64,000 nt of DNA from Yuukianura sp. NJ FZ-2021 (taxonomy: Eukaryota). The DNA lies in the NCBI GenBank assembly GCA_046563655.1, contig CM102287.1, positions 3,410,001 to 3,474,000 of the forward strand, in the 5' to 3' direction. Below the pieces are notes generated by a model. It made no database searches and was not told the origin of the DNA. It saw only the letters and a list, made by a program, of their open reading frames with translations. A program made the translations under genes and the position numbers. Positions 7,197 through 59,263 of this stretch are shown here, in pieces. Position 1 is the stretch's first letter. Every line of letters begins with the position of its first letter.

Positions 7197-7974
7197 TTCC
7201 TGGCCTTAATCAATCATTGTTTATTCAATTACTTTTAAATTTTCATCGGAAATGTTTGATTTGAAGTCTTACCTTGTTGAGCAAAGGAATCGCAAATCGG
7301 TTTGAGAACGTTTTTTCTGTTCAAAATCGGTGATGGAATAAACGGACAAGACGTCGCCTCTATATGTACCGTTCACTTCTACCTTCTGGATTACACAGCA
7401 GAACTATAATTAACATTGTTAATTCACTTGAATTAATAACTTAATTAGTGGACATGTGCGGTGGACGTGGAACAGACCTTGGAAGTTGGGGCTGGAACTT
7501 CTCCAACTCTTAGAAAAGATGAATGAACTTAAGTCCCCACAGCGCAAGCAATGCAAAATAAAATACTGACTAATTTTTGGACACAGAAGCGGCAGACGTT
7601 CATGTCAATTTGTACTTGCGGTCCATCAGCAAGATTGATGATTATGAAATGGTAAGTGCAAGCTCATACAGGCGTTTAAGCACTGTTTTAACTTAAACTG
7701 TGTTTAAGCATCCATCAACACTAGCTCAACTGCACAATTCAAAATTCAAGATGACGATGACGTGAATTTTTAGAAAAACTACTTAATTTGCTGGTTGATT
7801 TATAATCTCTGAAGTAAAATTTTGAAAATTACGGAAAATTTATTACGAGCTAAACAATTACAGTGAGGATTTGAGCGAGTTCGATAAACCACAAAAATCA
7901 AAACCTCATTTATTATTTTTTTTTAAAGAAAATAATTAATTAGTTAATGCGAACAGTTAATGGAGATTACATAC

Positions 7975-9273
7975 CTAACTTAATTTAAACGGTGCCATCT
8001 GAGTGTTTAGAAAACCAAATTCCCGGAATATGAAATACTGCAAGAGAAAAAAACAACTGAAAGTTTGTGCAACTTGTTATTTCTCAAAACGTTTTATGAG
8101 TTTTATGAAACGAAACTTCGAATCTTACCAGTCCAGCGTTGAGAAGATTAGCTTCTTCAATAAATGGTCGAAGTCCAGCCGTTTCCAATTTTTCCCACCA
8201 CTCTCCTACTTTTGTCAGCCAATCAGATTTGTTGAATTTCCCAAGATGGACTTCAATCTGGAGTTGCGCAAAGGGAAGTTTTTCTGGAAAATCGTTTAGG
8301 ATCGCCGGCATTGCTTCCCACTCAGCCCCTTCTACGTCCATTTTGAGTACATCGAGCTTTGTGACCTTGAGATCCTCCATGATAGATTTGAGTGTGCTGT
8401 AGTTGCCGACGTTTGTGCCTGAAATTCCAAGGAAGTGGAAGAATGCTCTGCCGGGATACTTCTGGACGACATCAGGCACCCTGCGAATCGTTGGGTCAAA
8501 CATGTGAACGATACAGCTTTGGGTTCTGCTTAGAAATTCGTCTTCAAAGGAAGTGTCGCCGCTGACTCCGAAGGAAAACACGGTACAGTCGGGCTTTGTT
8601 TCGAGCAAATCAAACCCGCAAATCCATTTCCCGCCGTCACCAACTCTGCCAATCCGTTCTTTGGTAAAAGGACAGTCGAAACTCGGGTAGAAAAAGTCCC
8701 AGATGATTTGTAGTTGAGGGCGGTCGACACCGTCGGTCAATTGAACGTCCTCGATGGCCAGTTTCCGACGTTCCTGAGATCGAATCCAGTTGGCTTCAGA
8801 TGCTTTCAGTTGACTTTCAACGCTGTACACGTACGGTTGAGTAGCCAAGTCACGACGGGGTCCGTTGTTGTCGTTCTTCGGACGTTCCGGAACGGTTGAC
8901 CGTTGAATCCAGTTGAAATCGGTTTCGGAATTGGAATTGGATTCCTTCAGCTGAAACTCCCCACTGTACACGGCTGTGACAAAAAAATACGAATTTTAGA
9001 ATATTCATAACCTTTATGATTAGCATGCCGAAGAAGATGTAAATCGTTAACAGCGGTCTTACAAACACAATTTTATGCAAGTTACGTAAAGCAATGCGTT
9101 TACTGTAAATGTAATGCACAAAACTAATTACCTGGTGTAACACCCGTGTTACCATCAGAAAAATATCTGAAGTTAAACGAAGAAGTTGCCCACATAAAAA
9201 TGAGCAGTGTACAGACACTGGCCAGCAACAGAACGTTTTTCCGTGACGTGTAGACCGGCGAGGGAGTCCCCAT
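7975..9273 (-). CDS. METTL24-like methyltransferase, copy 2 (recent tandem duplicate of copy 1); 3 coding exons
   Basis: Core near-identical to copy 1; flanks and 3' intron also duplicated; anchor VLLLASVCTLLIFMWA. Confidence 0.88.
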
Positions 9274-9991
9274 TTCCTGACCCCAATCAATTACTAATTA
9301 CTTAAGCTTAATTACTTTGTCAATTACACTTTTACACGAAATTGGTGCGATTTGAAGTCAAACGTTACTGAATTCAAAAGAAGAAGCACAGTTGAACGTT
9401 GTTGTTCCTTCCCAATCGTCAGCAAATAAACAACCAGACATCGGCAATTTATAGACCGTTCACTTCTACTGTTCCACGAGCACCAATTGTTTAAATTTAA
9501 GCTGCTTTGTGCATGATTACACAGAACTGTAATTATATTATTGTTAATTAAGTTTCCGTGAAACTTAATTAATGGAAAGGTGGAACAGACCTTGGAAGTT
9601 GGATCTAGAATGGAACTGCGGTTGTGTTGTGGTCAACTCTCATAGAACAATAGATAAATTTAGGTCTCCAAGCATAAACAAACATAGGCATAATAGTTCC
9701 CTCCGGGTAAGAAACGCGCTATAAAAAGCCTTATTATTTCCTAGAAACACTTTATCTAAAAAAAAAGGAATTAAAAAAGAGACTAACAAGGTACTTTTAC
9801 CACTTCCTTTTCTTAAGTTCCAATAAGTTGTAAGTGTATGGTCTTTTTTATCAATGATTTACTAAAACCAGTTTTTATAACAAATTTTTATCAAAGTTTT
9901 ATGAAAAACTGAAGAATTTACTAATTCAGAACAGGGTTAAATTTAATTCAGAACAAGGTTATGAAGGATCAATCAGCGATTTTTTAGAAAA

Positions 9992-11047
9992 TTATTTTAA
10001 CTTGAATGGATCCACTTTGATATTTAAAAAAGCGAGCTCACGAAACATGAAAGGCGTCCACAACAAATTCGGTTCTTCGAAAAATTGGCGTAAACCGGCA
10101 AGTTCTAAATTCCGGTACCACGAACCCAAAATCCGCAACCATTCCGTAGAATTTTGGAACTTGTCAAGGTGTACTTCGACTTGGAGTTGGGCAAACGGGA
10201 GTTTTTGAGGAAAATCTTGTACGATTCGGCGCATTGCGTTCCATTCTGCCCCTTCGACATCCATTTTTAGTACATCCAGTTCGGTCACTTCCAGTTCCGC
10301 CATGATGGCTTCTAAAGTGCCGAACTCCGGTTCGTCTTCCGTACCGGATCCGATTCCTTGAAAGTGGAAAAAAGCTCTGTCGGGGTATCGCTCGACTAAC
10401 GACGGTACATTGGTGATTGTCGGGTCAAACATGTGCAGAACGCAGTGTTTCGTTCTGCGCAGAAACTCTTCTTCAAATGACGTTTCATCTTGTATGCCAA
10501 AAGAGAATACGGTGCACTTGACCTTTGACACTAACAGGTCAAATCCACAAATCCATTTCCCGCCATCACCGACTCTTCCTATACGCTCTTTGGTGTAGGG
10601 ACAATCGAAATTGGGATAGAAAAAATCCCAGATCCGTGTTTCTGTACGCTCAAGGTCATCAGTGATGTGGATACGCTTTAGGACTGCTTTCCGACGGACG
10701 TGGGATCGCCTCCAGTTGGCTTCAGCTTTTTTTAATCGCTTTTTTACTTCTGCGTCTGTGCAATTAGTTGGGGGAGGAGTTACCGAACTGGAATCTTTTG
10801 GCGTTCCGATCTGGGTCCCTGAAAGGACTGGGCCTTTGAGTTCTAAAGAAAATCAGGCGTTTCGACGGTTTTACATTCGGAAAAATAGTGTTTCGACATT
10901 TTTACCTGGCGGTTCCAGAACTTTGTAGGCGAATGACGGAACGGTATGTAGTAGATTGAATGACGGCGTCCAGAAATACCAAGCGAACAATAGTATCGAA
11001 AAGCCTACAAATGCAAATGTCGACGCTTTCCACGCAGAGTGCCTCAT
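9992..11047 (-). CDS. METTL24-like methyltransferase, copy 3; exons 11047-10906, 10842-9992
   Basis: Type II anchor (AFVGFSILLFAWYF), phase-1 intron at the same position as paralogs, GDGGKWICG and KMDVEGAEW motifs. Confidence 0.88.
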
Positions 11048-11426
11048 AGTTGGACTTTTCAGAAAAATTCGTTCCAAAAAAAATTGGAATTGAGAAATTT
11101 TACTGCAAAGTTAATGAAATCACAAAAAATTCGAAAAAGTCGTTTTTATTTTGAATTTTTTGAGACTTTTCAACTTTAGTTTTTTACTCTCAACATGACA
11201 AGCTTTGTTAAATCGTTCAAAAACCTCACATTAAAATTCACTTTTTTGCAAAATTTATAACTCTGAATTAGTAATAGTCACGTCCAAAACGAAAGGGCAA
11301 GTACACCCAAACATGTTAATGAATATTTCACAACACAACATTAGTTTATTATTATTATTTTACATTAATTATTTTATATTAATTATTCTACAATAATTAA
11401 TTCAAACTTTAGCATCTTTTTTTCTC

Positions 11427-12430
11427 TTAATCTTCTAGTTTGAACGGATGTCTTTTGACATTCAAAAAACCAAGTTCACGATACATGAACCGTTCATACA
11501 ACAAGTTCGGTTCTTGAACAAATTGACGCAGTCCAGCGTTTTCTAGATTTTCAAAAAACGAATTCAACGTTCGGAACCAATCGGCTGGGTTCGGAAAACT
11601 GTCCAAGTGGACTTCGACTTGGAGCTGCGCAAACGGAAGTTTTTCTGGGAAATCTTCCAGTGTTCTGCGCATCCCTTCCCACTCAGCCCCCTCTACATCC
11701 ATTTTAAGCACATCGACACTTTTCAAATCCAGTTCCGCCATGATGGATTTCAAAGTTTTGAATTTCCCGCCATCTTCAGCCCCGATTCCAAACGGATAAA
11801 AAACTGCCCGTCCCGGGTAACGTTCAACGATACTTGGCTGCGTAGTCACCGTTGGATCAAACATATGCACTGTACAGTTTTCCGTTCTGCGCAGAATCTC
11901 CTCTTCAAATGAAGTGTCATCACGAACTCCGAATGAAAACACAGTACATTTGACCTTGGCCACTAAAAGTCCAAATCCACAAATCCATTTGCCGCCATCT
12001 CCCACTCTCCCGATTCGTTCTTTGGTATAAGGACAGTCGAAACTTGGCGGGAAAAAATCCCAAATGATCCGGGCATTAGCGTTTCCCTCGCCATCGGGTA
12101 TCTGGTTAGTGTTCAGGACTGCTTGACGTCGGTCGTGGGATCGAATCCAGTTGGCTTCGGCAGTTCGAAGATGCGTTTTCAAGTCAAAACTTTGCCCAGA
12201 ATCGACAAGATTCTCATCTACTTCTGAAGATTCCCAATCTTTTCAAAAATATATTTTTGAAAAATTAAAACAAAAAAGTTGAAAATTCGAAACTTGACGG
12301 AGTTACAACTAATTGGCTTACGGTGCTTTCTTTTACGTTGTTGAACACTCGACATGTAGGAGACTAACACAAAGCTGAATAGAAACGCCCAGATGAACAC
12401 GAGAGTTTTTTTCAAAAATAACTTACTCAT
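11427..12430 (-). CDS. METTL24-like methyltransferase, copy 4; exons 12430-12322, ~12238-11427
   Basis: Anchor TLVFIWAFLFSFVLVSY; same catalytic motifs; in-frame splice. Confidence 0.88.
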
Positions 12431-41430: not shown

Positions 41431-44400
41431 TCACTTTGAATAATTGAATCTTCCGATTTTTCCTCTCGGCTCTTCATCCTCACTGTCTTCAATCTCCACA
41501 ACTTCCTCCGAATACTTCCGTTTCTTTCCAATTGGTTCACTTTTCGTTTTCTTTTCAACTTCAGTTTTCTGTCCATTCTGATCACTTTTCTTAGCTGACC
41601 GAGTTCTTCCAGCACTGTCAACTCTTGGAGGCAGTCCTGTTTGATCCTTCTTTGGAGTTTTTGCTCTCGGATCAACTTTCGGTAGCCCATTCCGGACAAT
41701 CAAATCTCCAACTTTCGCAGCAATGCCATTTTTGGGCGGAGTTGCATCCAACTTCGGAATTTTGACCAAAATTTGTCGAGTGAGGGCATCATCTTTTTCG
41801 ATTCTGAGTCCACTTCGTTCATTAGCAGCCTCCTTTTCAAGCATTTCAAACAACAAGTTCGTCCGAGCGTGCAGTTCCTCTCGAGTTCTCGATCGCAGAA
41901 ACCAGCCCATCGCTGGATCTTGCCTAAAATTTCAAAAGATCAGGTTAGGTTAGGCTCTAATTTGAAAATTTTGATTGACCTTTGACCTTACCTGATGTTA
42001 GACTGAAGATCCATAAAGACAAAGTTATCCTGTCCACTTTCGTAAATTTTATGCAACTCCCACAAAATATTGCGGTCATGGTGAATTCGAAATCGCGTTC
42101 CCTGCATCTCCGGCGGATCAAAAGTAATCTCCAACTCGTTTTTCGGATCTTTGTACTTTCGGATCTGAAACAACAAATTTCAAAATTTTAAAAAAAGTTA
42201 GATTTGTGGCAATTTGGAATTTTTTGAACAATGAACGAACCTTAGCAGCCAATAACATTTTGCGAGCAATCATAGGCGCCATAAGGTTGGTCAGTCCAGC
42301 ATTTTTGAGCAGTCGTTCTGCTTCACAGATTTCGACACATCGTTTGAGAAACGTTTGGTGATAAGTAACAAGCAGTTCTGGAGCAACCCACATCCCCATT
42401 GCATCCACCAGCACATCCAAGTTTTCTATTCCCAGTGTTTTGATTACTTCAAAGTACTTCTGGAAAACGGCTTTTGTGATTGTGTCAACAAAAGTGCACT
42501 AAGAAATGTCAAAAATCGTTTATTTTTAGTTCATAAATCCAAGCAATCTCTCAATTTTTTTTCAAAAAAACGTTTTTAATCGATGACTTACACTGTTTTT
42601 CAGCGTATCGAATTCCAGCTCTTCCTCCAAGGTCAGTGGCAAACACCTTTTCAGTCTCTTCCGCTCATTCTTGTGAATTTCCACTTGATCTTCATATGAA
42701 AACTCATACAACCGTGGAATCTTGAACAAGAAAAATAAATGTCTAAAAATGAATCCAAATTATGAAAAATATTTCGAAATTTTGAAAGTTGTTAGTACCT
42801 CCACTTCATTCTTGAACTGCCGGAAAGTATCAAGTTGACGATAGTAAAGCTCAACAAACCGAGCTGGACAGAACTGAAAATCATAGATCGCCTTTGGTTT
42901 TCTGACAGCCTGAAAATCAAAAATTTCAAAAAATGGAATAATTTTTCGAAAAATCAAAATTTTTAGAGAACTTCGTATCACGAACTTACTCGTTGTTTTG
43001 GAGCAAGGGGTTTCTGGATTGATGGAGGCGGAGAAACTTCTTCAGTCTTCTTTGCTTTAGTTTTGTACTTCTTCGGTCGATTCGATCGTACTTGGCCAGT
43101 ACTACTGGACTTGTTGCCAGCATCAGTATCTTCTTCCTCTTCTGCATCGATAACTTCGATCAGTTTTGGATCAGGTACATACGATGGATCTTCTACAGTT
43201 TCATCCAATTTTGTTCTGCCACCAAACCTCGGTGAATCTTCATCATCGTTTGCATTGCTGTTCTTCTTCCGACGGCCACTTTGAACAAGAAAATCCTCTT
43301 CGTACTTTTGATTTCTCTTCCGCTCTCGCAAAACCCTGAACAAAAAAAAAAAAGATTTCAAAATAAATTTTGAGATTTTTTTTTCAATTTGAATTCAATT
43401 TTTAGTTTTTCAGAATCCAATGAGTTACCTATAATCCAGTCCCTCAAAATCATGACATTTGCTTGACTGAATGCTGGTGAGATCATAAACTTTTTCGTTG
43501 ATGAGTGGAGCTGGTTCTTCTTCAATTGCCAAATTCCTCAGCGATTCATCCTCCATCGATCCCAGTTTAGCCGTCAAATCATCCGCTCGCACTTTACTTC
43601 TTGCCAGTATTTCATCAATACTTTCGTCAGTCACCGTCGATTCCTTGGAGGCAATGATACTCTCGGCTCCAAATCGAAGGATTTTGAGCATCTCTTGTTT
43701 CGAAGGTGCGTTCGTTCCTCCCTCGACCAACCCACCTAGAAACAATTTTTAAAAAAGTTATTTCAAGTATTTCAAAATCGCTGATTTTAAAATTTTCAGC
43801 GATTAGTGCTTTACCTTGCTGAATAACTTTACGATCCAAATGCAGTTTGACTTCTGCTCGTTCCACAATTTTTTCATCAACGGTGTTCTCTGTGATTAGG
43901 CGAAAAACTCGTACTTGTTTCGTCTGTCCAATTCGATGGCATCGATCCTACAAAGTTACAAATTTTTCGAAAAATTGCACTTTTTCGTTTTTTTTTCCCA
44001 GGTCAAAGGTCAAATGTCTTACCGTTGCCTGAATATCCATTTGTGGATTCCAATCAGAATCGTAGATGATTACGACATCCGCAGAGGCCAAGTTAATTCC
44101 AAGTCCACCAGCACGCGTTGACAAGAGGAAGATGAATTTCTCACTGTCCTTGGCATTGTACCCATCGATGTCCAACTGACGGTCGCTATGTTTTGAACTT
44201 CCATCCAAACGGCAATACTGTTCAAAAATTGAAAAAATTATTTTAAAAAAGTCAATTTTTTGAGTTTTGATTTAATATTTTGTGAAATGTGTGGTCACCT
44301 TGTAGCCTTTCCACCACAGATAATCTTCCAAGATGTTGAGCATAGTAGTAAACTGAGAAAATATGAGGACTCGGGATTTCTCTTCGTGCAACTTCGGCAG

Positions 44401-46548
44401 TAGTTTGTCCAGTACAACCATTTTTCCACAATTGGTAACAATGTGTGAGTCAGTTGTGTAGGGTGGGCCTGGTTCTGCTGTTGGGAACAAATAGGGATGA
44501 TTGCACACTTTTCGTAAGTGCATCATCACACCATCAACTCGCATCTTCACTTCATTTCCTCCACGGAAGATCGTTATGTCATCCAGAAGTACTTTGCGAT
44601 ACCTGAAAGGTTGCAAGCATCAGCATCAGTATCAACATCCTTATCAGCAACATCAGTATCAGTGGCAACAGTATTTTACCATTCCTTCTGCATCTCTGAT
44701 AGACCAACGTAGACCTTGATTTCTTTCTTGGGCAGAAGACTCTTCTCCACATCCGATTTGATTCTGCGCAGTAGAAATGGACGCAAGATGCCATGAAGAC
44801 GATCCACCAGCGACAGATTTCCCAAACAAGTATTTGTGTCAAACCAAGCATCAAAATCCTAAAATCAAAACAAATGTTGATCAAAATACTGCCAATACTA
44901 TGCTAACGATTATAGAAAGCATCTTGTACTTGGTTTAGTTTTACCTCAGCTGAGTTGAACACATCCGGAAGCAGCATGTTCAGCAGAGCCCAGAGTTCGT
45001 GTAAATTGTTTTGCAGTGGAGTGCCAGTAAGAAGCAACCGATTTTTGGACTTGTACTTGCGAATGGTTTCGGAGAATTTCGTTTTCTCGTTCTTGAGACG
45101 ATGACCTTCCTGTGTTATCCAAAAAACAAGAGGCTTAACATAAACTATTCAAATCCATAAAAATTTTTTGTGTAAACAAAAAAAAAACTTACGTCGACGA
45201 TGAGGTAAACCCAATGCATACGTCGCAGAGCTGAGAATTCCAACAAAATGTACTCATAAGTTGTTAGACAAACGTTGAACTTCTTCTTCTTCAACACGCC
45301 CTCAATGATTTCCTCCTGAAAACAGTTTTTGAATGTTCAATTTCAAAATTTTACCAAGAATTTTTGAAAAAACTTTTCCTCTGAGCTCGATTTTTCAAGC
45401 GTCACAACTTATACCCGTGCTTCCTTTGGCCCAATCAGAGTCACTGCTTTGAGCGATGGACACCATTTGTCTATTTCGTTCTTCCAATTGGCAATTGTAG
45501 AAAGTGGGACAATCACCAGATGAGGTCCATGCTCATTTCGATAGTGTTTCAAATACCTAAGGAATCAAAATGCGCAAGTATTAGAATACTGCTGGTGAAA
45601 TGTCCACAATTTTCCACTTGTCTATGTGAGGTCATACCCGAGTAGCGAAATGGTTTGAATTGTTTTTCCGAGTCCCATTTCATCAGCCAAGATTCCGTTG
45701 ATTCCATTTTCGTAGAGTGAAATTAGCCAATTCAAACCGCGAATCTGATAATCCCTTAGCTTCGTGTTGTGAATATATGAAGGACTAGACTCAAATTGTG
45801 GTATATTTCTCGCCTTTTCTTCAAGGCCCAATTCTGCATCACTGAAAATTAACCAAGAAATAAATCGATTAATCTTAACGAATAACAAAACGTATTTTGG
45901 TTTAACAGCTTACTCCTTCCTGGATTGTACAAGCAACTTTTTCAATTGATCCAGTTTCCTCGGTCTCCCTCTCCCAGGACCCTTAGCCTGGTCCTGTCCA
46001 GTGCTAGCCACATAATCAGCAGCCGGTTTCATGAAATGTGAGAAAAAGTCGGTTCGTTGCAGAAGAAATTCCAAACGTTTTGCCCGATCTTTGTTCTGAC
46101 GAAATCGTAAAACAACAAGGTCAAACACAATGGGTAAGGAAATGACAAAATTGTACCGATCGACTTACCAAATCCTTGACGTGGTCTTCCCGACTCCGGG
46201 TGAACTTGAATGAATCATTGGAGCTGGAAGCAGAAGTCCCCTCATCAACATCCGTAACTGCAAGGAATATAAGGAGTTATGAAAATTGTAATTGCTCGTT
46301 GACGTTTACCCAATTACTTTGTACCGTATAGGAAAAATTAACTGACATAACTTACTATTTGAGCTTGGAGGAGTAGGTGACTTCGAAGTCGACGCTGTGC
46401 TGGGGTCGTTGCTCTCATAATCCGAGTCCGAATCAGAAAGGTTAACCAGTTTAGGCACTTTTGAAGAATACTTTGCCAATCGGTTTTCAGCATTCGATGT
46501 CACTGTAGCCACCGGACCCGGCTTTCTAAAGTTGGCTGGCCAACTCAT
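41431..46548 (-). CDS. Divergent ISWI/SMARCA5-like chromatin-remodelling ATPase, ~18 exons
   Basis: [122 protein letters not shown] and WFLRSRT (HAND-SANT-SLIDE remnants). Confidence 0.92.
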
Positions 46549-47935
46549 TTTGTTCTAGATCCAATCCAATCTTCCAGAAGAATCCAGAACACCGAACCTA
46601 CCACAACAAATGAAATCTCAAATTCAAGGCAAAAGTTAGTGGTTTCCATGCGTCATTCAACCTGAAATGTAATAAAACTTACCCAAAAACTATCGAGATG
46701 AAGCGATCAATCAACCAGATCCTGGAGGAGTCGAAATCTAAAGAATATGAAAATTTTCTCTCCTTGTCTTCCGGTTTACTTTTTAACGCAGTGTCGTCCG
46801 TGTCTTCCTCCTTCAACTTTCAACTGAAGACTGCTGGGTTAAAAATAAGTACAGGAACAATGCAGTGACCTTTTTTAAGAACAACCATAAAATCAAACAA
46901 GGAAACGAAACTCTCCCTCCTCGTTGCCTCGCACTTACTTTTCCAATTGCCTTTCTTTTCTTTTTCTTTGATTGATTTACCGCTGTCCCTCTCAGTGCCT
47001 ACCTGCATACGGCAAAGTTTTTCCCGCTTTTTGCATGAATTTAGCGCCGTTCAGTTTTATCTTACCTGTACGATTGACTAATCCACAGAATACGCAGATT
47101 CTTTAGCTTTCTGAATTTGTATATAAATAACAATTTTTTAAAATGTTTTATCTATTCATTACTTTGTTACATAGTTATGTGATTTGATTTTTACAGTTTT
47201 ATCATCGGTTTTGCTTAGAGTTTTCAGAAATTAACTTTACAATAAAATTTTTACAAAAAACGTAAAGTGTTGAAGATGCAAATTACCAATGCATGGCGAA
47301 TGTGTTGGAAATCTAATCATAAATAGCAAAAATCTATTAGCAATTGTGGAACAGTTTTGCAAATGATTTTTTCTTTGTGTGTCAATGACCTCCATGACCT
47401 CTTTTGGTCATAGCTTCTGGAAGACGGCTTAAGGGCTAAGCCTCATTGACACAGACTTTCTCCCGTTCATCCACAAGTCCCCGAATTCCACCGGATGCAG
47501 ATGTATTGAACTCTTTTTTTGTGTTCATTTCAACCGACGACGACTTGACTTCCTTCCGTTTTTCCCTCTCTATCTTCATCCTCGTCCTCATTTCTAAACA
47601 TTATAGCCTACCGAATGCGATGCTTTCAACACAAAAACTGCAGGGAAAGACAGAAGTCGAAAACATACGAGATCTCTCGCATTAATTTCAAAATTTCAGC
47701 TAAATTCTTAATTTGAAAATTATTAAAGAGTACGAACTTAAGGAAACTTTGAACCTCCTCTTTCAGTGAATTAGGTAGGTACATGGAAATTAATCTAACA
47801 TTTTGAGAAAATTGTGAAAAATTTGACATTATGCATTTTTTTGTCTTTGCAGTTTTTCTGGGATTCTGAGGTTTGGGCATGCCGGAATTTCGTGACCTGT
47901 GACCTGGAGGCGTCTTAACAGCGAAGCATGGACGG

Positions 47936-49390
47936 ATGGAAGATCGTCGCTTGATGTCCAACGATGAACGAGCTAATTGCCACCTTCCACCTATCGTCAA
48001 TGCTACAAAAACGTCATCAAATTTTTACTTGGACGAAGATCTCTTTGACAGAGTTTTAGGAATTCCAGCGAAAGTAGAGATTCCGCAGCGATACGTTGCA
48101 GATCCAGAGGAGTTGACTCCAGAAGAGAAACTGTGGAGGTCAAAGAAGGCTGAAGCCATTTGTCGCTTGTTGGCCAAGGCTGGTGGCCCTACTCAATCGC
48201 TGCTCGTTCCCAAAACGTCACCGAATCATACTTCGGCAGGACTCGGAAAACAACCGAGCAGTAGAAGCAGCAGTGGATTTTACAGTGGGGGGACATTGAC
48301 CTTGGGTGCTGGTGCAGGCGGGAGTCGACAGTCGCCCCAAAGTTTACCTGTGAGTCCACTGTTTCAACGGCAGCAAACCAGTCTAAGAAGAACGACACCT
48401 TCTGATTGGTCAATTAATTCACCACGGTTTCAGTAAGTTCAATTAATTAGTTAATTCTAAAACTGAACTTCATTGAAAAGTTTAAGCATTTAACAAGGCG
48501 AATCCCATTTTAACCGTCGCAACGAACAAACTTTAGTGTTAACAAAAAGGCGCGAAATTCAAAAATATTATTTTCTTCCGGCGTTGATTTTATTTTGAAA
48601 AAAAAAAAACCTAACAAAGACCTAACCATTCTGTACTCAATGAGTTTCGGTTTTAATTAGTTGTTCAATTAATTGCAATTTAATTACTTTGTGTTATCAC
48701 TGTTCGAGCTTCTGAATTGCTGAGTGTGAGGTATCGATTTGCTAATTATCTCTAATCAATTTCTCAATTTGAATTTTTGAGAATCAAAACAGCTGAGCGG
48801 ATTATGTTTCTGGATTTTAATCACATTTTTCTTTAAAAAAATTTCAAGGTTAATTAAGTATATGATTGATTATCGACTTATACTTTTTTTTTGTTTTTAG
48901 ATACTCAAATCGTCGCGGAAGTATTCGACGTGGCAGTGTCCACTATCTGGAGGAGCAGTACTTTGAAGACGCTCACGACGGCATAAGGTTAAGAGAAGAA
49001 TCAATCGCTGCTGAAGAAGCAAGACGAAGAACAGGTCAAGGTCATTACAGGCCTTCCTTGTTACAAAGTGCAAGTTGTGAACCTTTTGTAACTGTCGCTC
49101 ATAATACCCGCGGTGAGTCTCCATCAGTTCGTCCTTCATCTTCGGACTCCCAGAGATCACATTCATCAACTCTGTCCAGCTCAACATCTTCGTCTGACCG
49201 AGATCGGGAAGATATTTTTCACCTTCATCATCTCCTGGCCAAAGAAGTGAGTCAACGGAGTCAAGCAATTGCTCGTCGATCGCTAAATCCTTCACCGAAG
49301 AAACAACCTCCACTTTACTACGATCCACCTTCGCCTCCCTTATCCCCCCGACTGCCAATTACTCAACAACGAGAAAACTACTTAACCTGA
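47936..49390 (+). CDS. Orphan, largely low-complexity Ser/Arg/Pro-rich protein (~328 aa); exons 47936-48432, 48901-49390
   Basis: Two long stop-free, GC-richer ORFs joined in frame by a strong GTAAGT...TTTTTAG intron (CA|A = Gln); no recognised domain. Confidence 0.7.
48549..48563. promoter_or_regulatory. E2F/CDE-CHR (DREAM-type) composite GGCGCGAAATTCAAA; candidate internal promoter
   Basis: Exact composite inside intron 48433-48900; a related TTTGAATTTCGCGC is at 58985-58998. Confidence 0.45.
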
Positions 49391-49797
49391 ATGCATCCTG
49401 ACCTCTCACGTCACTTGCATTCCGACGAGTGTAACGCTCTCATTGACGCTCTGCGACAGTGTCACGAACAGGTACGAAAAAAACACCAAAATTTAGAATT
49501 TCCGAACTTATTTTGTAAATTCTTTCAAAAAACATTTTTCAGAACAAGTTCACGCGCATGTTTGGTGCCTGCAATGAGTTCGACACTGCTATGGTCCGTT
49601 GTCTGAAAGCAGAGGTAACTAAAAACACAACTTTTCAAACACTAATCGGTGACTTCTGATGGTTTTTCTTCGTATTTTGATTGTTTTGCTTCTCTTAGCG
49701 CAAGAAACGTCAACGTGCCAATAACGAAAAAGCTGCAGCGAGACACAAAGAGGCTGCAGACCGTACAAAACAAGCCAAAGTTGACGAGACTAAATAA
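49391..49797 (+). CDS. CMC2: COX assembly mitochondrial protein 2 homolog (twin CX9C); exons 49391-49471, 49543-49614, 49699-49797
   Basis: MHPDLSRHLHSDECNALIDALRQCH...FGACNEFDTAMVRCLKAER; twin CX9C and the characteristic MHPDLS.HLH start. Confidence 0.93.
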
Positions 49798-49938
49798 CTC
49801 AACTAATTAGAAACTAACGAAACGCTTTCAGAGTCAACTTTAATAGTCAACAGTCCTTCATAGTCCACTAAAACCTGGAGCTTCAACTTAGGAATTAGTT
49901 TGTCGAACCATCCTTGAACGCGGTGATTGAAATTTATA

Positions 49939-50731
49939 ATGGATGCTGCTGCTGCCTACGTAGAAGCAGCTGATGCCCTTCCTGGATTAAAAGAAGTGTG
50001 TCTTGATCGCCGTCCATTTGTAGATCGCTATTATACCAAAAAATACTTCACCGGTACTACCGGCAGTACAACTTCAGAAGGAAGGACTACTGGCAGCACA
50101 ACTTCAGAAGCAGAAGAAGGAGACTACATGCTGCTGGTTCACTCTAACAAACTTTCAGTACTAACTCTCGCACCGTCTCACCCCATAATCAAGCAAAATC
50201 TAACCGTCACCTCAATTAACTTTCAGGTAAGTTGTAAGTTGCAACTTGCAACTTATGAGTTACTAATTAATTAAAAAGTTAATCTTCATCTTAATTAATC
50301 GACTTTTCTGTTCTGTTTCAGATTTCTAAGAATGTTAACAGATTAGAAAATGTGGCCAAGGGAAAAGGGAAGAAGGGAGCTCAGTTTTTGCAACCATCTG
50401 CTCCAATTTGCACTGTAAGACCAAAGTTTTTCAAAATTTTAAATTTTATGAAAACTAAAACATTGTAGAAACTTCTGACCGTGACTTCTTTTTGAATTTG
50501 TAGATTGAAACGTCTTGCGGAAGGTCATTTGTGGTGAGAGCCGGAATAGTTGCCAAGTTACTGGAAGTGAACGACCGAATTGTACTGGAGCCGGAACTGC
50601 TTAAGAAAGCGGGCACTGGATACTTGGCCATTTTCTCTTGTCGTGCCGCTGATTTTGAGAAGCAAATGAAATCGCTGATGTCGGAAGAAGAGTATTTAGA
50701 GACGCTCAAGAATAGAAGCCAACTACTTTGA
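49939..50731 (+). CDS. ABITRAM: ABITRAM/FAM206A/Simiate-like protein; exons 49939-50226, 50322-50414, 50504-50731
   Basis: FVDRYYTKKY, LVHSNKLSVLTLAPSHP, NRLENVAKGKGKKGAQFL, KLLEVNDRIV.EPELL....GYLAI; AATAAA at ~50795. Confidence 0.88.
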
Positions 50732-52460
50732 CTTTTACAAGACTATGACCTGTTGTCCTTCAATTAACTAACTGTAGTCAAGCAATACAAATTCTAATAA
50801 AATATAATACATTAATTGAAATTAAACTAATTACTTTAATTGTCCTTAAAAAGTTAGTTTCATATCGTTAAGAAAGGCACGGACGCCGCGCCGATAAGCC
50901 ATATTTCTCGTCTGCCATTTCTGCACATGCGTCGTTTTTGAATGGATGAAAATCGTTCTTTGTTTTTGTTTACATTTTTTATCAGTTGCTCTTTAGTCAG
51001 CCAACTGACCTGTCATCTGTTTGGATTCTGGAAGAGGTGAGTTAATCGATTAATTGTAAGTTTCAGTTAGTTAATTAATTTTTATTCTAACTTAACGTTA
51101 AGTCCGCAGTTAAGTCCTTTCGGACTCCAAAAATTCCAAAGCAGTAAACTGCATTGGGAGGTTTGTCACTTTAGGGTGCCAGCATCAATGCCCTCACTTA
51201 CAGTTCATCGGGTCATTGCTGTCTCCATGGACAAGGTCGGAAGAGGATCCCTAAGTTTAGTACTTCACACTCTGCAAGGTCAAAATCATACGAACGTCCA
51301 TGCATAGATAACTGGACTTATCTCTGCTTTAGTACCTTCAATACGGTACTTTATCCATGATTACTTCTAATTAGTAGCCAGAGGTGCCGATTTTAAACTA
51401 TTTTCTAGATTAATTGATCTTCATAGCTGGAAAATTACGATTTCGATTGAAGTAATTGAACAATAAGGAAGAATTCTTCATCTTGATCATTTGTTCTTAC
51501 AGATCTTCCAGAAGAACACCAGATACCGGTATCCCTGTAGCTTAAGGAGGATCACCTCTTCTCTTCAGGTATTAATTAACAAGTGTTTTAAGACTAATTC
51601 ATTGACAGTAATTGCTAAATCTGTCTAGGAATTACGGTAAGAGGAAGCACGAGCTTTACTTGGATCCTTGGATCTCAAGATAACTAAAACTGGACTGAAC
51701 TAGTTCGGGGGAAGGGAGGCTGTCATCGTCATCAAGGGCAGTACTTAAGTACCCCGCAGCACATCTTGAAGAGTCTTTTACGAATTGGAATTGTCCTTAC
51801 GAATACCTGTTGGTATTTGCTCAAAGTGTTCGTGTTGCTCCTTCCGTAAGTTTTATGCATGAACACGGATATGGTTGTCCTTTGGTGGTGGTGGGCTGGG
51901 CATGAGTAGTCTCTTTTGATCTCAATTTCTCTGCGTATGTTTTTTGTATTTTCAATTTCAGTTTCCTGAGTGCGATCGAGAGAGTTGAGCTGAGCTAATC
52001 TCGTCATCATCATATGCTCTTGTGGTCTTCTGTCAGTCAGCTTAACTTCAATTTGGTTTTACAAATACAATTGTGAAATCTTCCTCATCTGTACGAGTGT
52101 CACTGTAAGAAGAACATCTTAAGTTTTAGTTTTCCAATCACCTTGCCATTACTCTAGATTGGAGGGGTATCAGTTTTTAAGTGAGTGACTCATCTTAATT
52201 GACTCCTGCTGTGATACAGGAGACATCCAAAAAGTTCTGGTGCTCTTCAGAACATTCACGCCCACAAGTTGAAATTAAACCACTGGATATCGGATATTCT
52301 CTTTTGAAGTGCTGAACTGAGGAGTGACGTTAATCGATTGGCGACAGTGCCAAGTGATACTCAAGATACCTCAGAGTACTGCCAGTACTTCGTCAGAATA
52401 CTTCCAGTACTTCGTCAGCATCGATAAAGTGAAGGGTGCCCTTAACAATGGGAGTTAAAG

Positions 52461-55400
52461 ATGACGTCTTCTAGTAACGGCATTCCTCCTCCATTGAGTT
52501 CCCAAAGTAACCCACTTCACGACTACCAATCAGTACAACACGATCCGAATCCAAGGCCATCTCAGCAGGTCAGTAAAGTTCATCAATCGATTACTCTGTC
52601 AATCGATTACTCTATCTATCGATTACTAAATTAGTGAAAGTAATCGATTTGTTTTCGTTTTAGCTAAAGAAACGCTTCAGTTCCATCAGTTCCGACGACG
52701 ACATGATTGACATCACGCATCAGGGAACTGTAAATGAATTGGGAGAAGGTGACTTCCCCATGTCCAATCAGAGTAAGCTGTTTTTCAAAAAAGTTTTCAA
52801 AATTCAAAAAAGTAATTTCAAAATTTTGATTTTGGTTTTCACAGGTTATTATGATGATGATATCCCTGGAATCGGCCAGTATGAAGATTTTCATACGATC
52901 GATTGGCAACGGGACATTGCCCGTGATCGGATGCGTCATCGCTACATCATCAAGAAGCGACAGGTTAGAATTTCAAAAAACGTTCCTTTTACTTGGATTC
53001 TTTGAAAAAAACGTTGGTTGATCGTTTTTTTTCTTTCTTAGGAATCAGTATGTGAAATGATCCGAGGTGCTCATGATGCCTGGAGCGGCTGGCTATGTGT
53101 CCTGCTCGTAGGGATTTTGGCTGGAACCCTTGCAGGGGTCATTGACATTGGAGCCAGTTGGATGACCGATCTGAAGTTCGGAATTTGTCCAGAAGCTTTT
53201 TGGTTGAACAAGGAACAATGCTGTTGGTCATCAAATGAAACTGACTCAGTTTTGCAAGGATGTGCTCAGGTAATCAATACAAACCCAAAGGCTTATACCC
53301 GTTTTGAAACTTTTTATCAACTGCATTTTCAAAATTTCATAAAATTTTGATTTTTGAACAGTGGTTATCCTGGCCAGAAGTGTTCGGAGGCAGTTCGAGT
53401 GGTGCTGGAGCGTACATTGTGTCATACTTCTTCTACGTTATCTGGGCTCTGTTCTTTGCTTCATTAGCTGCTCTTCTAGTCCGCATGTTTGCTCCCTATG
53501 CTTGTGGTTCCGGTATTCCCGAGGTAAGATTTTCAAAAAATCTTCAAAATTAGTTTCTTTTCAAAAAAAAGTTTCAAAACTTAAAAAATTGTGGTTTTAG
53601 ATCAAGACAATCCTGAGTGGGTTCATCATCCGAGGGTACTTGGGCAAGTGGACACTGCTGATCAAGTCAGTTGGACTCATGTGCTCAGTATCTGCTGGGC
53701 TGAGTTTAGGCAAAGAAGGCCCGATGGTCCACATCGCTTGTTGTATTGGCAACATACTGGCTTATCTCTTCCCGAAGTATGGACGAAACGAAGCCAAGAA
53801 GCGCGAAATACTGTCGGCTGCTGCTGCCGCCGGAGTGTCAGTGGCTTTTGGAGCACCGGTTGGTGGAGTCCTGTTTAGTTTGGAGGAGGTATGACCTTGA
53901 CCTTCGACATTTTCTGCTCGTGACCTTTGACCTTTTCTAAAATCTCTTTTTTTTCTGACAGGTCAGCTACTACTTCCCCCTGAAGACCCTGTGGAGATCG
54001 TTTTTCTGTGCTCTAGTCGCAGCCTTTGTCCTTCAGTCCATCAATCCCTTTGGAAACGAGCATTCCGTTCTCTTCTACGTTGAGTACAACAAGCCCTGGA
54101 TCTTCTTTGAACTCGTCCCCTTCATCGGACTCGGAATTCTTGGGGTAAGTTTTTCAAAATTTCGAAATTTTGAAGTTTTTGAGAAATTTTTGAATTGTGT
54201 GATATTGATATTGGTGTTAGGGTATCATTGGAAATCTGTTTATTCGTGCCAACATCTGGTGGTGTCGATTTCGAAAATCTTCGCAATTGGGCCACTATCC
54301 AGTGACAGAAGTTCTTGTGGTAAGTTTAGCATAATCTTAACTAATATAAACTAACGTAACAAAATAATTGTTAATCAATTAGTTAATTAATCGTTGATTA
54401 ATTGTCGTTTTGGTTCCAGGTTACCTTTGTGACTGCAATTCTAGCATATCCCAACCCTTATACAAGAATGCCAACAAGCAAACTCGTAAGTGACTGTTGT
54501 TGTAAATCAAGTTTTTCAAGAAAACGAAACGAAAGACAAGTTTTTGAAAAACAGTTTTGTTTTGTTTGCTGTGTGTAGATTTATTTGCTCTTCTCCAGTT
54601 GTGGACCTGACAAACTTGATGCTCTTTGGTAAGATCTTTTTAGGATTAAAAAGAAAAAGCCTAAAGCATTTTGAATTTCCTAATTTTTAATTCGTTTGCA
54701 GCGACTACAAGCGGAACTTCTCAAATTTGAATTCAGCGATTGAAATCGCAGCAGCAGGACCAGAAGTGTACAATGCCATTTGGCTCCTCGTCCTTGCCCT
54801 CATTTTTAAATTTATCGTTACCATCTTCACCTTTGGTATCAAAGTTCCCGCTGGACTGTTCATACCATCACTCTGCTTCGGCGCAATCGTCGGACGAATT
54901 GTTGGAATTGCAGTGGAACAACTTGCATAGTAAGTCAAAATACATCAAAAAATGTCAATGAAAGCAAGAATTTTGAGAAATTCACTGTTTGGAGAAAACA
55001 CTGAAATTTTGAATTATTTTAGTAACTACCAACACTTTTGGATCTTTGCTGGAGAATGTTCTGCCGGAGAAGACTGCATAACGCCTGGACTGTATGCTAT
55101 AGTAGGCGCCGCGGCGGTGCTGGGCGGTGTGACACGCATGACCGTGTCTCTTGTGGTGATCATGTTCGAGCTAACAGGAGGTGTGAGGTACATTGTACCG
55201 CTGATGGCCGCAGCGATGTCAGCCAAGTGGGTAGGAGATGCGCTGGGAAGACAAGGAATCTACGATGCCCATATCGCTCTCAACGGCTATCCCTTCCTAG
55301 ACTCAAAAGAGGAGTTTGGACATACGACACTCGCAGCTGATGTGATGCAACCAAGGTAACAAATCCAGTCTGAGGTCACGCGATTGACCTCTGACCTTTC

Positions 55401-57113: not shown

Positions 57114-57382
57114 CTTGTTTCGTGATTACTAATTGCATTCGTAGAAGGTTGAGTGAAGGTCTTTTGTCGATTCCTCTCTGACGTACAGGAAATTTGTTTT
57201 CTCATGGAAAACGTTTTCAGTCAACTAAGAGTACAGCGACTAGTCAGACAGCATCTGGAAGGAAAAATGATAAAGAATTATTAAAATTAATCGATTAATT
57301 ACATAGATTGAGTGAAGCTAGTACTAACCTATGTATTCCAGTTACAACAATTGCTTGGCCGATTGATGAACGGTTGCTTTTC

Positions 57383-58911
57383 TACGGAAGCTTAAAAGGG
57401 TCAAATCACGTCCCACTTCCCAGTGCTCGGTACTCGATACCCAGTGCGCGGTTCCCAGTACTCGGTGCGCGGTTCCCAGTACTCGCTACCCGCTTCCCAG
57501 TACTCAGTGCGCGGTTCCCAGTACCCGGTACCCGCTTCCCAGTACTCAGTGCGCGGTTCCCAGTACTCGGTACCCGCTTCCCAGTACTCAGTGCGCGGTT
57601 CCCAGTTGTGCTGCGCGGTTCCCAGTTGTCGCTGCGCGGTTCCCAGTTGTGCTGCGCGGTTCCCAGTACTCGATTCCCACTTCTCAGTTCCCAGTGCGCG
57701 GTTTCCGGGTGGTCCTTTTTCTTCAAAAATCGTTATCTCCTTTTTGTTGCCCTTTGGAGCTCGAGCCTTCCTTTCTATCTGCAAAAATGGCAATTATGTA
57801 AATGCAGTACCGTGAGGATCCCAGTGTAGAAGACCCATGGCTGTTATTTATTACCAAAATGAGCGTAACTAAAAAATTGCACTAATTTCAAAAAAATACC
57901 GTACTGCATCGAGAACATTGACAATTAAAATAACATGCGGATACTTAGGTTCAAAAACTGAACAAAAAATCAACAATTAAAAAAAATATTTGAGTTGACG
58001 TTCTTTCTCCTTGCAAGTGAATTTTGAACTATTGAATGATTTGATTATTATACCTATTTTTATCTTTTACACTTACAGTTCTGTTGTGTTAATAAATATT
58101 TGAGTGTTCACTAAAAAATTGAATGATCTAACTATTGATTTTTTTTATTATTGATTTTTTGTTCAGTTTTTGATTTTGTTTCACTCCTTGAAACATTTTG
58201 AAGTAATGAATTTTTTTAAGTATTAAATTTTTATGGAAGTATTGCCATTTTATTTTAATTGTTAATTTGTTTGATGCGTTACGGTATTTTTCTGAAATTA
58301 GTGCAATTTTTTTAATTTTGCTCATTTTGGTAATAAATAACAGCCATACGTCTTCTACACTGGGATCCTCACGGTACTGCATTTACATAATTGCCATTTT
58401 TGCAGATAGAAAGGAAGGCTCGAGCTCCAAAGGGCAACAAAAAGGAGATAACGATTTTTGAAGAAAAAGGACCACCCGGAAACCGCGCACTGGGAACTGA
58501 GAAGTGGGAATCGAGTACTGGGAACCGCGCAGCACAACTGGGAACCGCGCAGCGACAACTGGGAACCGCGCAGCACAACTGGGAACCGCGCAGCGACAAC
58601 TGGGAACCGCGCAGCACAACTGGGAACCGCGCACTGAGTACTGGGAAGCGGGTACCGAGTACTGGGAAGCGAGTACCGAGTACTGGGAACCGGGAATCGA
58701 GTACTGGGAACCGCGCACCGGGTACTGGGAACCGCGCACCGGGTACTGGGAACCGCGCACCGGGTACTGGGAACCGCGCACCGGGTACCGGGAACCGCGC
58801 ACCGAGTACTGGGAACCGGGCAGCACAACTGGGAACCGCGCAGTTAAACTCCAGTGTATTGCTTATGGAGGAGGTAATCGGGAAGCGAGTTGGCCCTTTT
58901 ACGCTTCCGTA
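57383..58911. mobile_element. Non-autonomous foldback-type DNA transposon; long inverted arms containing 20-21-bp tandem repeats; 6-bp TSD CTTTTC
   Basis: Termini TACGGAAGCTTAAAAGGGTCAA and TTGGCCCTTTTACGCTTCCGTA are inverted; CTTTTC at 57377-57382 and 58912-58917; arms ~57383-57987 and ~58139-58911; unit CCCAGTACTCGGTGCGCGGTT; no transposase ORF. Confidence 0.9.
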
Positions 58912-59263
58912 CTTTTCCTTTGTCTTTGTGTTTTTCCTTTTTTTTCGTGTTCTTTTTGTTGACAGTTTTTTTCACAAAAGTTGATTTGAATTTCGCGCTG
59001 AATTTCTGGAGGGAGTCTTCGCAAAAAAAAAAAGTAAACACATGGCAGAGTGTTTTACTTGTAATCCTAATCAGCTGTTTTCTGTCTTAATTTTATACTA
59101 ATTACCCTGCTTAATTAATTAATGAATTAATTAATTTGAGATTCATTGAGAGACTAATCACTGATACATCAAGGTAACAATAATATAAATCAAAATAGTA
59201 TCTGGAGATTTCATAGAACGTTTTTGCCCTGAAGTAATTGTTGTTTTGTTTATGATTCACAGA

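Follow-up and report, generated by a model that had tools for sequence, protein, structure and literature searches.

An AUG-depleted springtail gene that abuts CMC2 may double as the leader of its neighbour in a conserved dicistronic unit

Dicistronic mRNAs of the Drosophila stoned locus (stnA/stnB) and of Snapin were reportedly described by Wall, Phillips & Kelly in 2005 in J Biol Chem. In GCN4 and ATF4, delayed reinitiation follows translation of short open reading frames located upstream (uORFs), and the element that is bypassed is an inhibitory uORF. According to excerpts of PMC11892635, the upstream cistrons of stoned and Snapin have no internal AUGs and their second cistrons are translated by leaky scanning. 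The same excerpts describe green-algal bicistronic loci in which ORF pairs are conserved, leaky scanning operates, AUG is under-represented before ORF 2 and spacers are short; ORF 2 often encodes a small organellar protein, and the constructs include the TOM22 and OST4 loci. Parts of two further sources describe Drosophila sloth1/sloth2, in which a bicistronic transcript encodes two small mitochondrial assembly peptides (PMC9953451), and count 159 dicistronic pairs in FlyBase (PMC4528330).

Here we describe a locus in a 64,000-nt stretch of genomic DNA from Yuukianura sp. NJ FZ-2021 (the window, meaning the whole stretch analysed) at which the stop codon of one gene directly adjoins the start codon of CMC2. 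The original prediction had reported a zero-gap, in-frame junction of TGA and ATG, and this is what the DNA contains: the TGA at 49388-49390 and the ATG at 49391-49393 are adjacent codons of a single frame on the + strand. The junction context is ...CTTAACC TGA ATG CAT..., and no splice signal lies between the stop and the start. The features of the locus, all on the + strand, are as follows.

47928..47954, +, short uORF of 8 codons, in another frame, starting 8 nt ahead of the main ATG
47936..48432, +, coding exon 1 of the upstream gene (PLEKHA6-C-terminal-like protein), from tblastn to relatives
48433..48900, +, intron, GT...AG, phase 2, with an L002 intron at the same position
48549..48563, +, E2F-like/CHR-like motif GGCGCGAAATTCAAA, inside intron 48433-48900
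48901..49390, +, second coding exon of the upstream gene with its stop TGA 49388-49390, ATG-free, the proposed dual-use CMC2 leader
49388..49393, +, TGA-ATG junction of the cistron-1 stop and the CMC2 start, read from the sequence, same frame
49391..49471, +, CMC2 exon 1, Pfam Cmc1 PF08583, E=1e-5, 25.9 bits (cutoff 22)
49543..49614, +, CMC2 exon 2, Cmc1 E=2.6e-4, 21.4 bits, slightly short of the cutoff if this exon is scanned by itself
49699..49797, +, CMC2 exon 3 with stop TAA, from tblastx to L002
49939..50223, +, opening exon of the gene that follows on this strand, 141 nt past the CMC2 stop, same gene order in L002

The upstream ORF had been called an orphan, a label that no longer applies. 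Removing the intron at 48433-48900 gives an open 987-nt frame, with homology to relatives on both sides of the intron, and the 328-aa product is a stand-alone member of a conserved springtail family that includes Folsomia candida LOC110857979 and an Allacma fusca protein. Exon 1 was matched by tblastn with P0006 (2.7e-10), L001 (7e-15) and L002 (7e-14), and the C-terminal end encoded by exon 2 is conserved among relatives. Family members share homology with the C-terminal part of a damselfly protein of 1094 aa, which has a TBCA_PH domain; in a tblastn search with P0006, only its residues 934-1004 and 1033-1094 matched the window. One source names the Folsomia protein PLEKHA6. PLEKHA4-7-type proteins carry PH and TBCA_PH (PF25541) in the same protein, a combination that the upstream ORF does not have, and judged from its sequence the ORF is a homologue of the PLEKHA-type C-terminal region only. 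Pfam found no family on the upstream exons of the window, on L001, on exon 1 of L002 or on the Allacma and Folsomia proteins. A word-indexed search with exon 1 among longer proteins gave no match at E<=0.001, and the best scores of an ESM Atlas search (0.76) were uninformative. We rejected the idea that the ORF is simply the last exons of a long PLEKHA gene: in L001, L002, Folsomia and Allacma the proteins begin with Met at the equivalent point, and in the window a divergent SNF2/ISWI-type gene lies upstream of the ORF on the opposite strand.

The second gene encodes an 83-aa protein with a twin Cx9C arrangement (two C-x9-C pairs), as in the CMC2 / Cmc1 family. CMC2 is a twin-Cx9C mitochondrial cytochrome oxidase assembly factor. 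No AATAAA or ATTAAA occurs between the cistron-1 stop and the CMC2 ATG, either in the window or in the two related loci described below; in the window, none follows the cistron-1 stop before 49986, and none precedes the gene at 49939. With the cistron-1 stop directly at the CMC2 start and no poly(A) hexamer in between, all cistron-1 mRNAs would have to extend into CMC2. A likeness to ABITRAM was considered for the gene at 49939 and dropped, as Pfam gave no confirmation. An Rfam scan of the whole window returned no families.

The original prediction had also singled out exon 48901-49390 as free of ATG, and a recount of these 490 nt gave zero ATGs against 6.6 expected from base composition. The nearest + strand ATG upstream of the CMC2 start is at 48862, which leaves a 529-nt gap with a first-order Markov expectation of 4.8 ATGs. 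Taken alone, this gap is only modestly unusual: the + strand of the window has 819 ATGs, and 5 of the 818 gaps between them are at least 529 nt long (about 0.6% per ATG). A gap of similar size, at 53891-54468 (Markov expectation 8.3), falls within a CLC-channel gene and has no apparent leader function, and such stretches of about 500 nt elsewhere in the window, with no obvious leader role, count against a dicistronic reading. The longest + strand gap, 640 nt at 48000-48640, is the next one upstream of the 529-nt gap. Exon 1 contains ATGs only at 47936, 47954, 47964 and 48000. Between 48000 and 49391 the only ATGs are those at 48640, 48804 and 48862, and since all three are intronic, the spliced reading is ATG-free for about 920 nt, from 48003 to 49390. 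Of the 64 trinucleotides, ATG alone has a count of zero in this spliced tract (Markov expectation 8.8), whereas CAT occurs 14 times. Over the whole coding sequence we counted 4 ATGs, none of them beyond the first 67 nt, whereas dinucleotide shuffles averaged 10.8 (P=0.001). The 306 codons past the last ATG contain no ATG out of frame, where synonymous-codon shuffling gives 3.33 (P=0.009).

We compared the window with two metagenome loci, L001 and L002, the only two of 112 candidate stretches that were confirmed as relatives. In both, CMC2 follows on the same strand right after the conserved C-terminal end of the family. In L001 the coding sequence has a single ATG, the initiator, against 12.1 expected from dinucleotide shuffles, and no out-of-frame ATG against 6.06 expected; none of 3000 synonymous-codon shuffles was as low. 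ATG is also the only trinucleotide absent from the 1266-nt tract of L001, in which CAT occurs 17 times. The original prediction had proposed conserved ATG avoidance in 48901-49390 as a check. The whole ORF of L001 shows such avoidance, and exon 2 of L002 has no ATG, which is not significant by itself (0 against 0.51 expected). Exon 1 of L002 is not depleted and has an ordinary density, with 4 out-of-frame ATGs (two of them with A at -3) where 3.16 are expected. An ATG-free run that ends at the CMC2 ATG is common to the window and L002, extending in L002 over exon 2 and the spacer only. As in stoned and Snapin, the first cistron is depleted in internal AUG, exon 1 of L002 being the exception.

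The proteins show the same avoidance. In all five full-length family members (window, L001, L002, Allacma and Folsomia; 317-390 aa, 35-70% identical), Met occurs only at positions 1 and 7, whereas the homologous 175 residues of the damselfly protein include 6 Met. Of 12 fragmentary family proteins, 4 may have a single internal Met (M82 in P0012, M109 in P0013, and the residues that begin P0017 and P0020), which counts against a dicistronic reading. These results bear on the possibility that the two genes have no functional link, CMC2 having its own start site inside or immediately ahead of the junction and both the ATG-free run and the adjacency being due to chance or composition. The 5 of 818 gaps that are as long, one of them inside an unrelated gene, would fit this, as would the low-complexity Ser, Pro and Gly stretches in which the upstream protein is rich and which seldom permit ATG; exon 2 of L002 is ATG-free by composition alone. 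We nevertheless consider the absence of a link improbable, as it would have to accommodate the same-strand adjacency kept in all three loci, the significant synonymous-codon tests in the window and L001, the unique absence of ATG among 64 trinucleotides in both tracts, and the lack of Met beyond positions 1 and 7 in every full-length protein when the damselfly region has 6.

The spacing of the two genes distinguishes among the ways in which CMC2 might be translated. The cistron-1 stop and the CMC2 ATG are separated by 0 nt in the window, by 29 nt in L002 and by 429 nt in L001. In L002 the two codons lie in different frames (offset 32 nt), and the L001 spacer contains stops. A stop triplet just before or overlapping the CMC2 ATG is also found in L002 (...ttgaATG) and L001 (...attaATG). 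Ribosomes that end cistron 1 at the TGA could in principle restart at the abutting ATG, an alternative raised in the original prediction to which the adjacency in the window and the stop triplets at the other two CMC2 starts lend some appeal. TGGGA-type motifs mark sites of termination-reinitiation, and without such elements reinitiation after a long ORF is inefficient; none was present within 150 nt upstream in any of the three loci. Coupled termination-reinitiation also gives no reason for ATG avoidance over the whole cistron, and the abutment is not conserved, the cistron-1 stop being 29 and 429 nt from the CMC2 ATG in the relatives. We regard it as very improbable.

Similarly low credence goes to the remaining routes, namely readthrough of the TGA into a fusion protein, an IRES (internal ribosome entry site), or spliced-leader (SL) trans-splicing of a polycistronic precursor. 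The in-frame junction of the window would suit a fusion, and the three closely packed same-strand genes with no canonical poly(A) hexamer between them would suit a precursor. Readthrough, the other alternative of the original prediction, could operate in the window only, because the frame is conserved in neither L002 nor L001. The zero gap and the shared frame are thus specific to the window, so neither readthrough nor tight termination-reinitiation is the conserved mechanism. The 230-nt stretch at the junction has no stronger fold than its shuffles (z=+0.44), which suggests a scannable leader and shows no sign of IRES-like structure before the CMC2 ATG. Against trans-splicing, the CMC2 ATG is not closely preceded by an AG acceptor with pyrimidine tract, and no SL RNA was found in the window by Rfam, which is weak evidence; SL trans-splicing is not known from hexapods. 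None of fusion, IRES or trans-splicing explains the avoidance of ATG.

The introns gave further information about how the two genes may be transcribed. L001 lacks all three introns of its relatives: two in cistron 1, deduced from the truncated predictions P0009-P0013 and P0017-P0019, and CMC2 intron 1, which is present in the window and L002. The simplest account of three introns missing across both cistrons is a processed RNA that at one time held the two together. The L001 spacer has 7 ATGs, which count against a dicistronic reading. They would fit a scanning model only if a candidate intron is removed, running from GTAAGA at 1693 as far as a pyrimidine tract with AG near 2029; this intron is hypothetical and hard to square with a processed-RNA origin of L001. 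A small inserted element as the origin of the L001 spacer was rejected, the only sign of one being a 14-nt, 86% inverted repeat that may be due to chance.

The cistron-1 intron at 48433-48900 could instead hold a promoter that makes a CMC2 mRNA with the last upstream coding exon as its 5' UTR. In that case only exon 2 would need to be free of ATG, and a dicistronic read-through RNA would add little CMC2. The motif claimed at 48549 is present in the intron as GGCGCGAAATTCAAA, and the candidate donors noted earlier at 48731 and about 48849 correspond to GT dinucleotides at 48731 and 48849. Matches to the motif with at most one mismatch number 3 in the window against 0.10 expected. GCGCGAAnTTCAAA recurs in the orthologous introns (48550 in the window, 2412 in L002), which are otherwise not alignable, and another copy of the motif lies about 280 nt upstream of the start of an Rpb7-like gene, as a promoter element would. 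Exon 1 of L002, with its ordinary ATG density ahead of an ATG-free run of exon 2 and spacer, also agrees with an internal promoter, and the part of PMC4528330 that bears on this states that many dicistronic loci in FlyBase have monocistronic transcripts as well. Against this, an internal promoter leaves unexplained the ATG-free part of exon 1 in the window, the whole ATG-free ORF of L001 and the absence of Met from exon 1 in all five full-length proteins. L001 lacks both the equivalent of the intron and the motif; 3 ATGs in the window and 4 in L002 lie between motif and acceptor. The motif at 58985 faces the other way relative to the downstream gene, and the intronic copy could serve antisense transcription or an enhancer. 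We hold an intronic promoter, which was the leading idea of the original prediction and is the strongest rival to a dicistronic unit, to be possible, if rather doubtful.

We favour a conserved dicistronic unit in which the first cistron doubles as the AUG-free leader of CMC2, and we put its probability at roughly 50%. The anatomy, the conservation of gene order and the avoidance of AUG and Met are read directly from the DNA; from them we infer a single mRNA and a route by scanning or reinitiation. Cistron 1 (47936-48432 and 48901-49390) and cistron 2 (CMC2) would be carried on one mRNA, and the CMC2 AUG would be reached by cap-dependent scanning. A fraction of 40S subunits would start no productive translation of cistron 1, either leaking past the 5' AUG cluster or translating the short overlapping uORF and then resuming scanning. 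These subunits would cross about 0.9 kb of coding sequence, kept AUG-free by selection, and would initiate at the first AUG they meet, that of CMC2. The original prediction of a dual-use exon survives in this model in part: given that gene order, the ATG-free run to the CMC2 ATG and the near-absence of Met are conserved, the last upstream coding exon is very probably a scanning-compatible CMC2 leader. An internal promoter would not tell the whole story, since ATG and Met are avoided in exon 1 of the window and throughout the ORF of L001 as well.

The start codons speak both for and against this model. In its favour, a uORF overlaps the start of cistron 1 in the same relative frame in all three loci. 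In the window its TGA (47952-47954) overlaps the Met7 ATG (47954), and L002 has the same layout, with an ATG at 1721, 8 codons and a TGA that overlaps the Met7 ATG at 1747; the L001 uORF has 19 codons and starts at 440. The window and L002 uORFs have A at -3 and G at +4, placing a strong-context upstream ATG 8 nt before the main ATG, which itself has C at -3 in the window and L002 but A there in L001. In all three loci the context of the CMC2 AUG is weak, with T at -3. A strong first upstream AUG together with this T at -3 counts against a clear picture of ribosome flow. The uORF might act as a gate, such that ribosomes translating it skip Met1 and then either restart immediately at Met7, giving cistron 1, or scan on through about 0.9-1.3 kb that offers no AUG and restart at CMC2; we think this unlikely. 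If it were true, the ratio of the PLEKHA-like protein to CMC2 would be set by the speed of ternary-complex reacquisition, and a GCN4/ATF4-like stress-responsive switch would have been built from a whole coding cistron across deeply diverged hexapods.

Literature searches found nothing relevant on CMC2 in a bicistronic, dicistronic or polycistronic arrangement. Titles and abstracts on dicistronic genes in Collembola held nothing on this pair of genes, a search for bicistronic loci in Folsomia candida returned none, and the searchable part of the FlyBase rule-benders supplements had no match to Cmc1, Cmc2, kmr, kramer or scanning. If the dicistronic reading is correct, the locus would be a deeply conserved addition to the few animal dicistronic mRNAs whose design can be read from DNA. 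An entire cistron would have been kept AUG-free, down to its synonymous codons and Met content, because it doubles as the leader of the next gene. With its spacers of 0, 29 and 429 nt and its conserved uORF, the locus offers a natural test bed for scanning and reinitiation distance through coding sequence. There is also a consequence for annotation: since the first gene resembles an orphan and its neighbour CMC2 seems to have neither promoter nor 5' UTR, pipelines may mishandle both.

Compared with the known systems, the locus resembles stoned and Snapin in having two unrelated arthropod ORFs in series, the first depleted in AUG and the second presumably reached by scanning. It differs from them in its genes (PLEKHA6-C-like and CMC2), in the zero intercistronic distance of the window, in the conserved short uORF over the cistron-1 start, in the lack of depletion in exon 1 of L002 and in being known from DNA alone. 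As far as the excerpts of the green-algal study go, the conserved ORF pair, the scarcity of AUG before ORF 2, the short spacing between the ORFs and the small organellar product of ORF 2 are shared with those bicistronic loci. The green-algal ORF 1 described there is usually short with a weak Kozak context, whereas the upstream gene here has 328 codons behind a strong-context upstream AUG, and here, unlike in those loci, the CMC2 AUG itself is in a weak context (T at -3). In the portion of the sloth1/sloth2 report considered here, the likeness is a small respiratory-chain assembly factor in a two-ORF arthropod arrangement; the sloth products are both small, paralog-like and concerned with complex III, whereas our locus pairs a 328-aa protein that does not look mitochondrial with a complex IV factor. 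Finally, as in GCN4 and ATF4, a short uORF overlaps or bypasses one start and a long AUG-free tract precedes the next, but in the springtail locus the bypassed element would be a full protein-coding cistron.

As the original prediction had it, the stop codon of the upstream open reading frame (TGA, 49388-49390) directly adjoins the CMC2 start codon at 49391 in the sequence (...CTTAACC TGA ATG CAT...). Removing a GT...AG intron (48433-48900) leaves the upstream frame, here called cistron 1, open over 987 nt.

Genes at the junction
47936-48432 and 48901-49390: cistron 1, 328 aa
49391-49471, 49543-49614 and 49699-49797, + strand: CMC2 exons, 83 aa with two C-x9-C pairs

The CMC2 exons matched Pfam Cmc1 with E values of 1e-5 and 2.6e-4. 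The predicted absence of ATG from 48901-49390 was also borne out, against 6.6 expected from the composition of the exon. On its own, the gap of 529 nt at 48862-49391 (first-order Markov expectation, 4.8 ATGs) is only modestly unusual, because 5 of the 818 + strand inter-ATG gaps in the window are at least as long. The original prediction overlooked that the longest such gap in the window, 48000-48640, lies just before it; the only ATGs within 48000-49391 (48640, 48804 and 48862) are all intronic. Over its final 920 nt the spliced cistron-1 frame is free of ATG in all three reading frames. Of the 64 trinucleotides only ATG has a count of zero in this tract (8.8 expected), while CAT, its reverse complement, is found 14 times. 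Elsewhere on the + strand, long ATG-free stretches were seen at 51357-51855, 52014-52448 and 53891-54468 (Markov expectations of 6.1, 6.4 and 8.3). The first pair sits a short way ahead of the opening ORF of a CLC chloride-channel gene and may form its leader; the third, a comparable gap, falls within that unrelated gene.

Cistron 1 matched no Pfam family and had been called an orphan, a label that a wider search overturned. With exon 2 as the query, HMMER returned six proteins from 1.84 billion representatives (E ≤ 0.001), three of which aligned end to end at the C terminus; the other three were repetitive and were disregarded. One end-to-end match, the 1094-aa damselfly protein XP_071453518.1 (Hetaerina americana), carries a TBCA_PH domain (PF25541), and its residues 934-1004 and 1033-1094 match exons 1 and 2, respectively. 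Using the uninterrupted ORF of L001, a metagenome locus with the same gene order, as the query recovered stand-alone proteins of similar length from Folsomia candida (LOC110857979, 317 and 319 aa, named PLEKHA6 in one source) and Allacma fusca (376 aa). Identity of the window protein to the four springtail-type full-length proteins is 35-36%, against 49-70% among those four, a divergence that would fit a hexapod outside that group or a fast-evolving lineage. Judged by homology, cistron 1 is a predicted stand-alone homologue of the C-terminal region of PLEKHA-type proteins, without PH domains, because its stand-alone relatives have their starting Met at the homologous position and a divergently transcribed SNF2/ISWI-type gene lies upstream. 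Between cistron 1 and this chromatin remodeller gene (41431-46554, - strand) lie about 1.2-1.4 kb, which could hold a promoter region common to both.

When metagenome contigs were scanned once, two relatives, L001 and L002, were confirmed among 112 candidate stretches. Both carry CMC2 on the same strand, right after the conserved C-terminal end of the family.

Spacers between cistron 1 and CMC2
L002: stop at 3193, CMC2 ATG at 3225, 29 nt
L001: stop at 1627, CMC2 ATG at 2059, 429 nt

Termination-reinitiation and a readthrough fusion, both proposed originally, rely on the zero gap and common frame found in the window; neither feature is conserved in L001 or L002, which disfavours both mechanisms. 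In none of the three loci does an AATAAA or ATTAAA separate the stop of cistron 1 from the CMC2 start codon, so a cistron-1 mRNA would have no place to end ahead of CMC2. The first such hexamer after 48901 in the window is at 49986, within a third gene, and the gene downstream of CMC2 is the same in L002. The third gene, on the same strand, begins 141 nt past the CMC2 stop (spacer 49798-49938) with neither hexamer before its start; the same order is seen at about 3900-4300 of L002, with ATTAAA at 4223. The transcription unit might comprise more than two genes.

ATG avoidance varied among loci. The window coding sequence has four ATGs, none of them beyond nt 67, whereas dinucleotide shuffles average 10.8 (P = 0.001). 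Over the 306 codons past the last of these, there is no out-of-frame ATG against 3.33 expected under synonymous-codon shuffling (P = 0.009); the same shuffling gave P = 0.049 for exon 2 alone and no significant out-of-frame depletion for the exon-1 part alone (P = 0.30). L001 has only its initiator ATG (12.1 expected), an ATG-free run of 1269 nt and no out-of-frame ATG (6.06 expected; 0 of 3000 shuffles as low). Depletion was not significant in the L002 coding sequence (6 ATGs against 9.8 expected), where exon 1 has four out-of-frame ATGs (3.16 expected), which start ORFs 3 to 13 codons long. Exon 2 and the spacer of L002 are ATG-free over 477 nt, an absence for which composition accounts (0 against 0.51), and the 531-nt gap ending at the CMC2 ATG is the longest among the 101 gaps of that locus. 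In all five full-length family proteins Met is confined to positions 1 and 7; the homologous 175 damselfly residues include six Met, and Met averages 1.25% in long ORFs of the window. Avoidance in the family is thus strong, yet not absolute, because a single internal Met may occur in 4 of 12 fragmentary predictions (in P0012 and P0013, and among the first residues of P0017 and P0020).

Three introns known from relatives are missing from L001.

Introns absent from L001
Cistron 1: common to the window and L002; implied by truncated predictions P0009-P0013 and P0018
Second intron: implied by P0017-P0019
CMC2 intron 1: present in the window and L002

L001 may be an RNA-derived contig, a retrocopy or a product of cDNA-mediated intron loss; because of these absences, the simplest origin by any route would be one processed RNA bearing both cistrons. 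This reading is weakened because the seven spacer ATGs sit between GTAAGA at 1693 and a pyrimidine tract with AG near 2029, a candidate intron that would have stayed unspliced in such an RNA. A 14-nt inverted repeat (1659-1672 and 1996-2009, 86% complementary) flanks all seven; it could have arisen by chance, mark the ends of a small insertion or form a stem.

In each of the three loci an out-of-frame uORF runs across the start of cistron 1, always in the same frame relative to it.

uORFs overlapping the cistron-1 start
Window, ATG at 47928, + strand: 8 codons, A at -3, G at +4, TGA overlapping the Met7 ATG
L002, ATG at 1721: 8 codons, A at -3, G at +4, TGA overlapping the Met7 ATG
L001, ATG at 440: 19 codons

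Position -3 of the CMC2 ATG is T in every one of the three loci, and folding of the 230 nt surrounding the junction is no better than that of shuffled sequences (z = +0.44). We favour, with a probability of about one half, a conserved dicistronic unit in which cistron 1 also serves as an AUG-free leader, which scanning or reinitiating ribosomes would traverse to reach the CMC2 AUG.

The main rival, which we regard as rather doubtful, is that CMC2 has an mRNA of its own from an intronic promoter, with exon 2 serving as 5' UTR. It draws support from GCGCGAAnTTCAAA, present once in the window intron (48550) and once in the orthologous L002 intron (2412), which are not alignable apart from this motif; the window has three matches with at most one mismatch, against 0.10 expected. 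Of the promoter originally proposed, a regulatory element is what the conserved motif supports, possibly a promoter; the motif does not indicate its strand or the gene served. An exact GCGCGAAATTCAAA copy lies at 58985-58998 in opposite orientation, about 280 nt upstream of the start of an Rpb7/Rpc25-like gene (59265). Nearby, two GC-richer low-complexity repeat blocks (57299-57838 and 58355-59043) stay open in several reading frames of either strand and seem to be inverted copies of a single minisatellite. Another copy of the motif, with one mismatch (11757-11770, - strand), is within a methyltransferase ORF. At 6132-12242 (- strand) lie four paralogous ORFs in tandem, 271-303 aa long; the one scanned (6132-7028) has Methyltransf_22 and FkbM-like domains. 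Many dicistronic loci also yield monocistronic transcripts, according to an excerpt of a FlyBase account (PMC4528330). The dicistronic unit and an intronic promoter may exist side by side.

The closest known systems are Drosophila stoned and Snapin, with their AUG-free first cistrons, reportedly the subject of Wall et al. 2005. No paper was found in the literature searched that ties CMC2 or springtails to such a dicistronic locus. In PMC11892635, the first cistron of the stoned and Snapin mRNAs is described as free of internal AUGs and the second as needing leaky scanning; green-algal bicistronic loci, with AUG depletion ahead of ORF 2, are also close. The fly sloth1/sloth2 pair encodes small mitochondrial assembly peptides on a bicistronic transcript, as an extract of PMC9953451 describes. 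With good sequence support across species, the locus would add a CMC2 unit to an already known kind, the AUG-depleted dicistronic mRNA.
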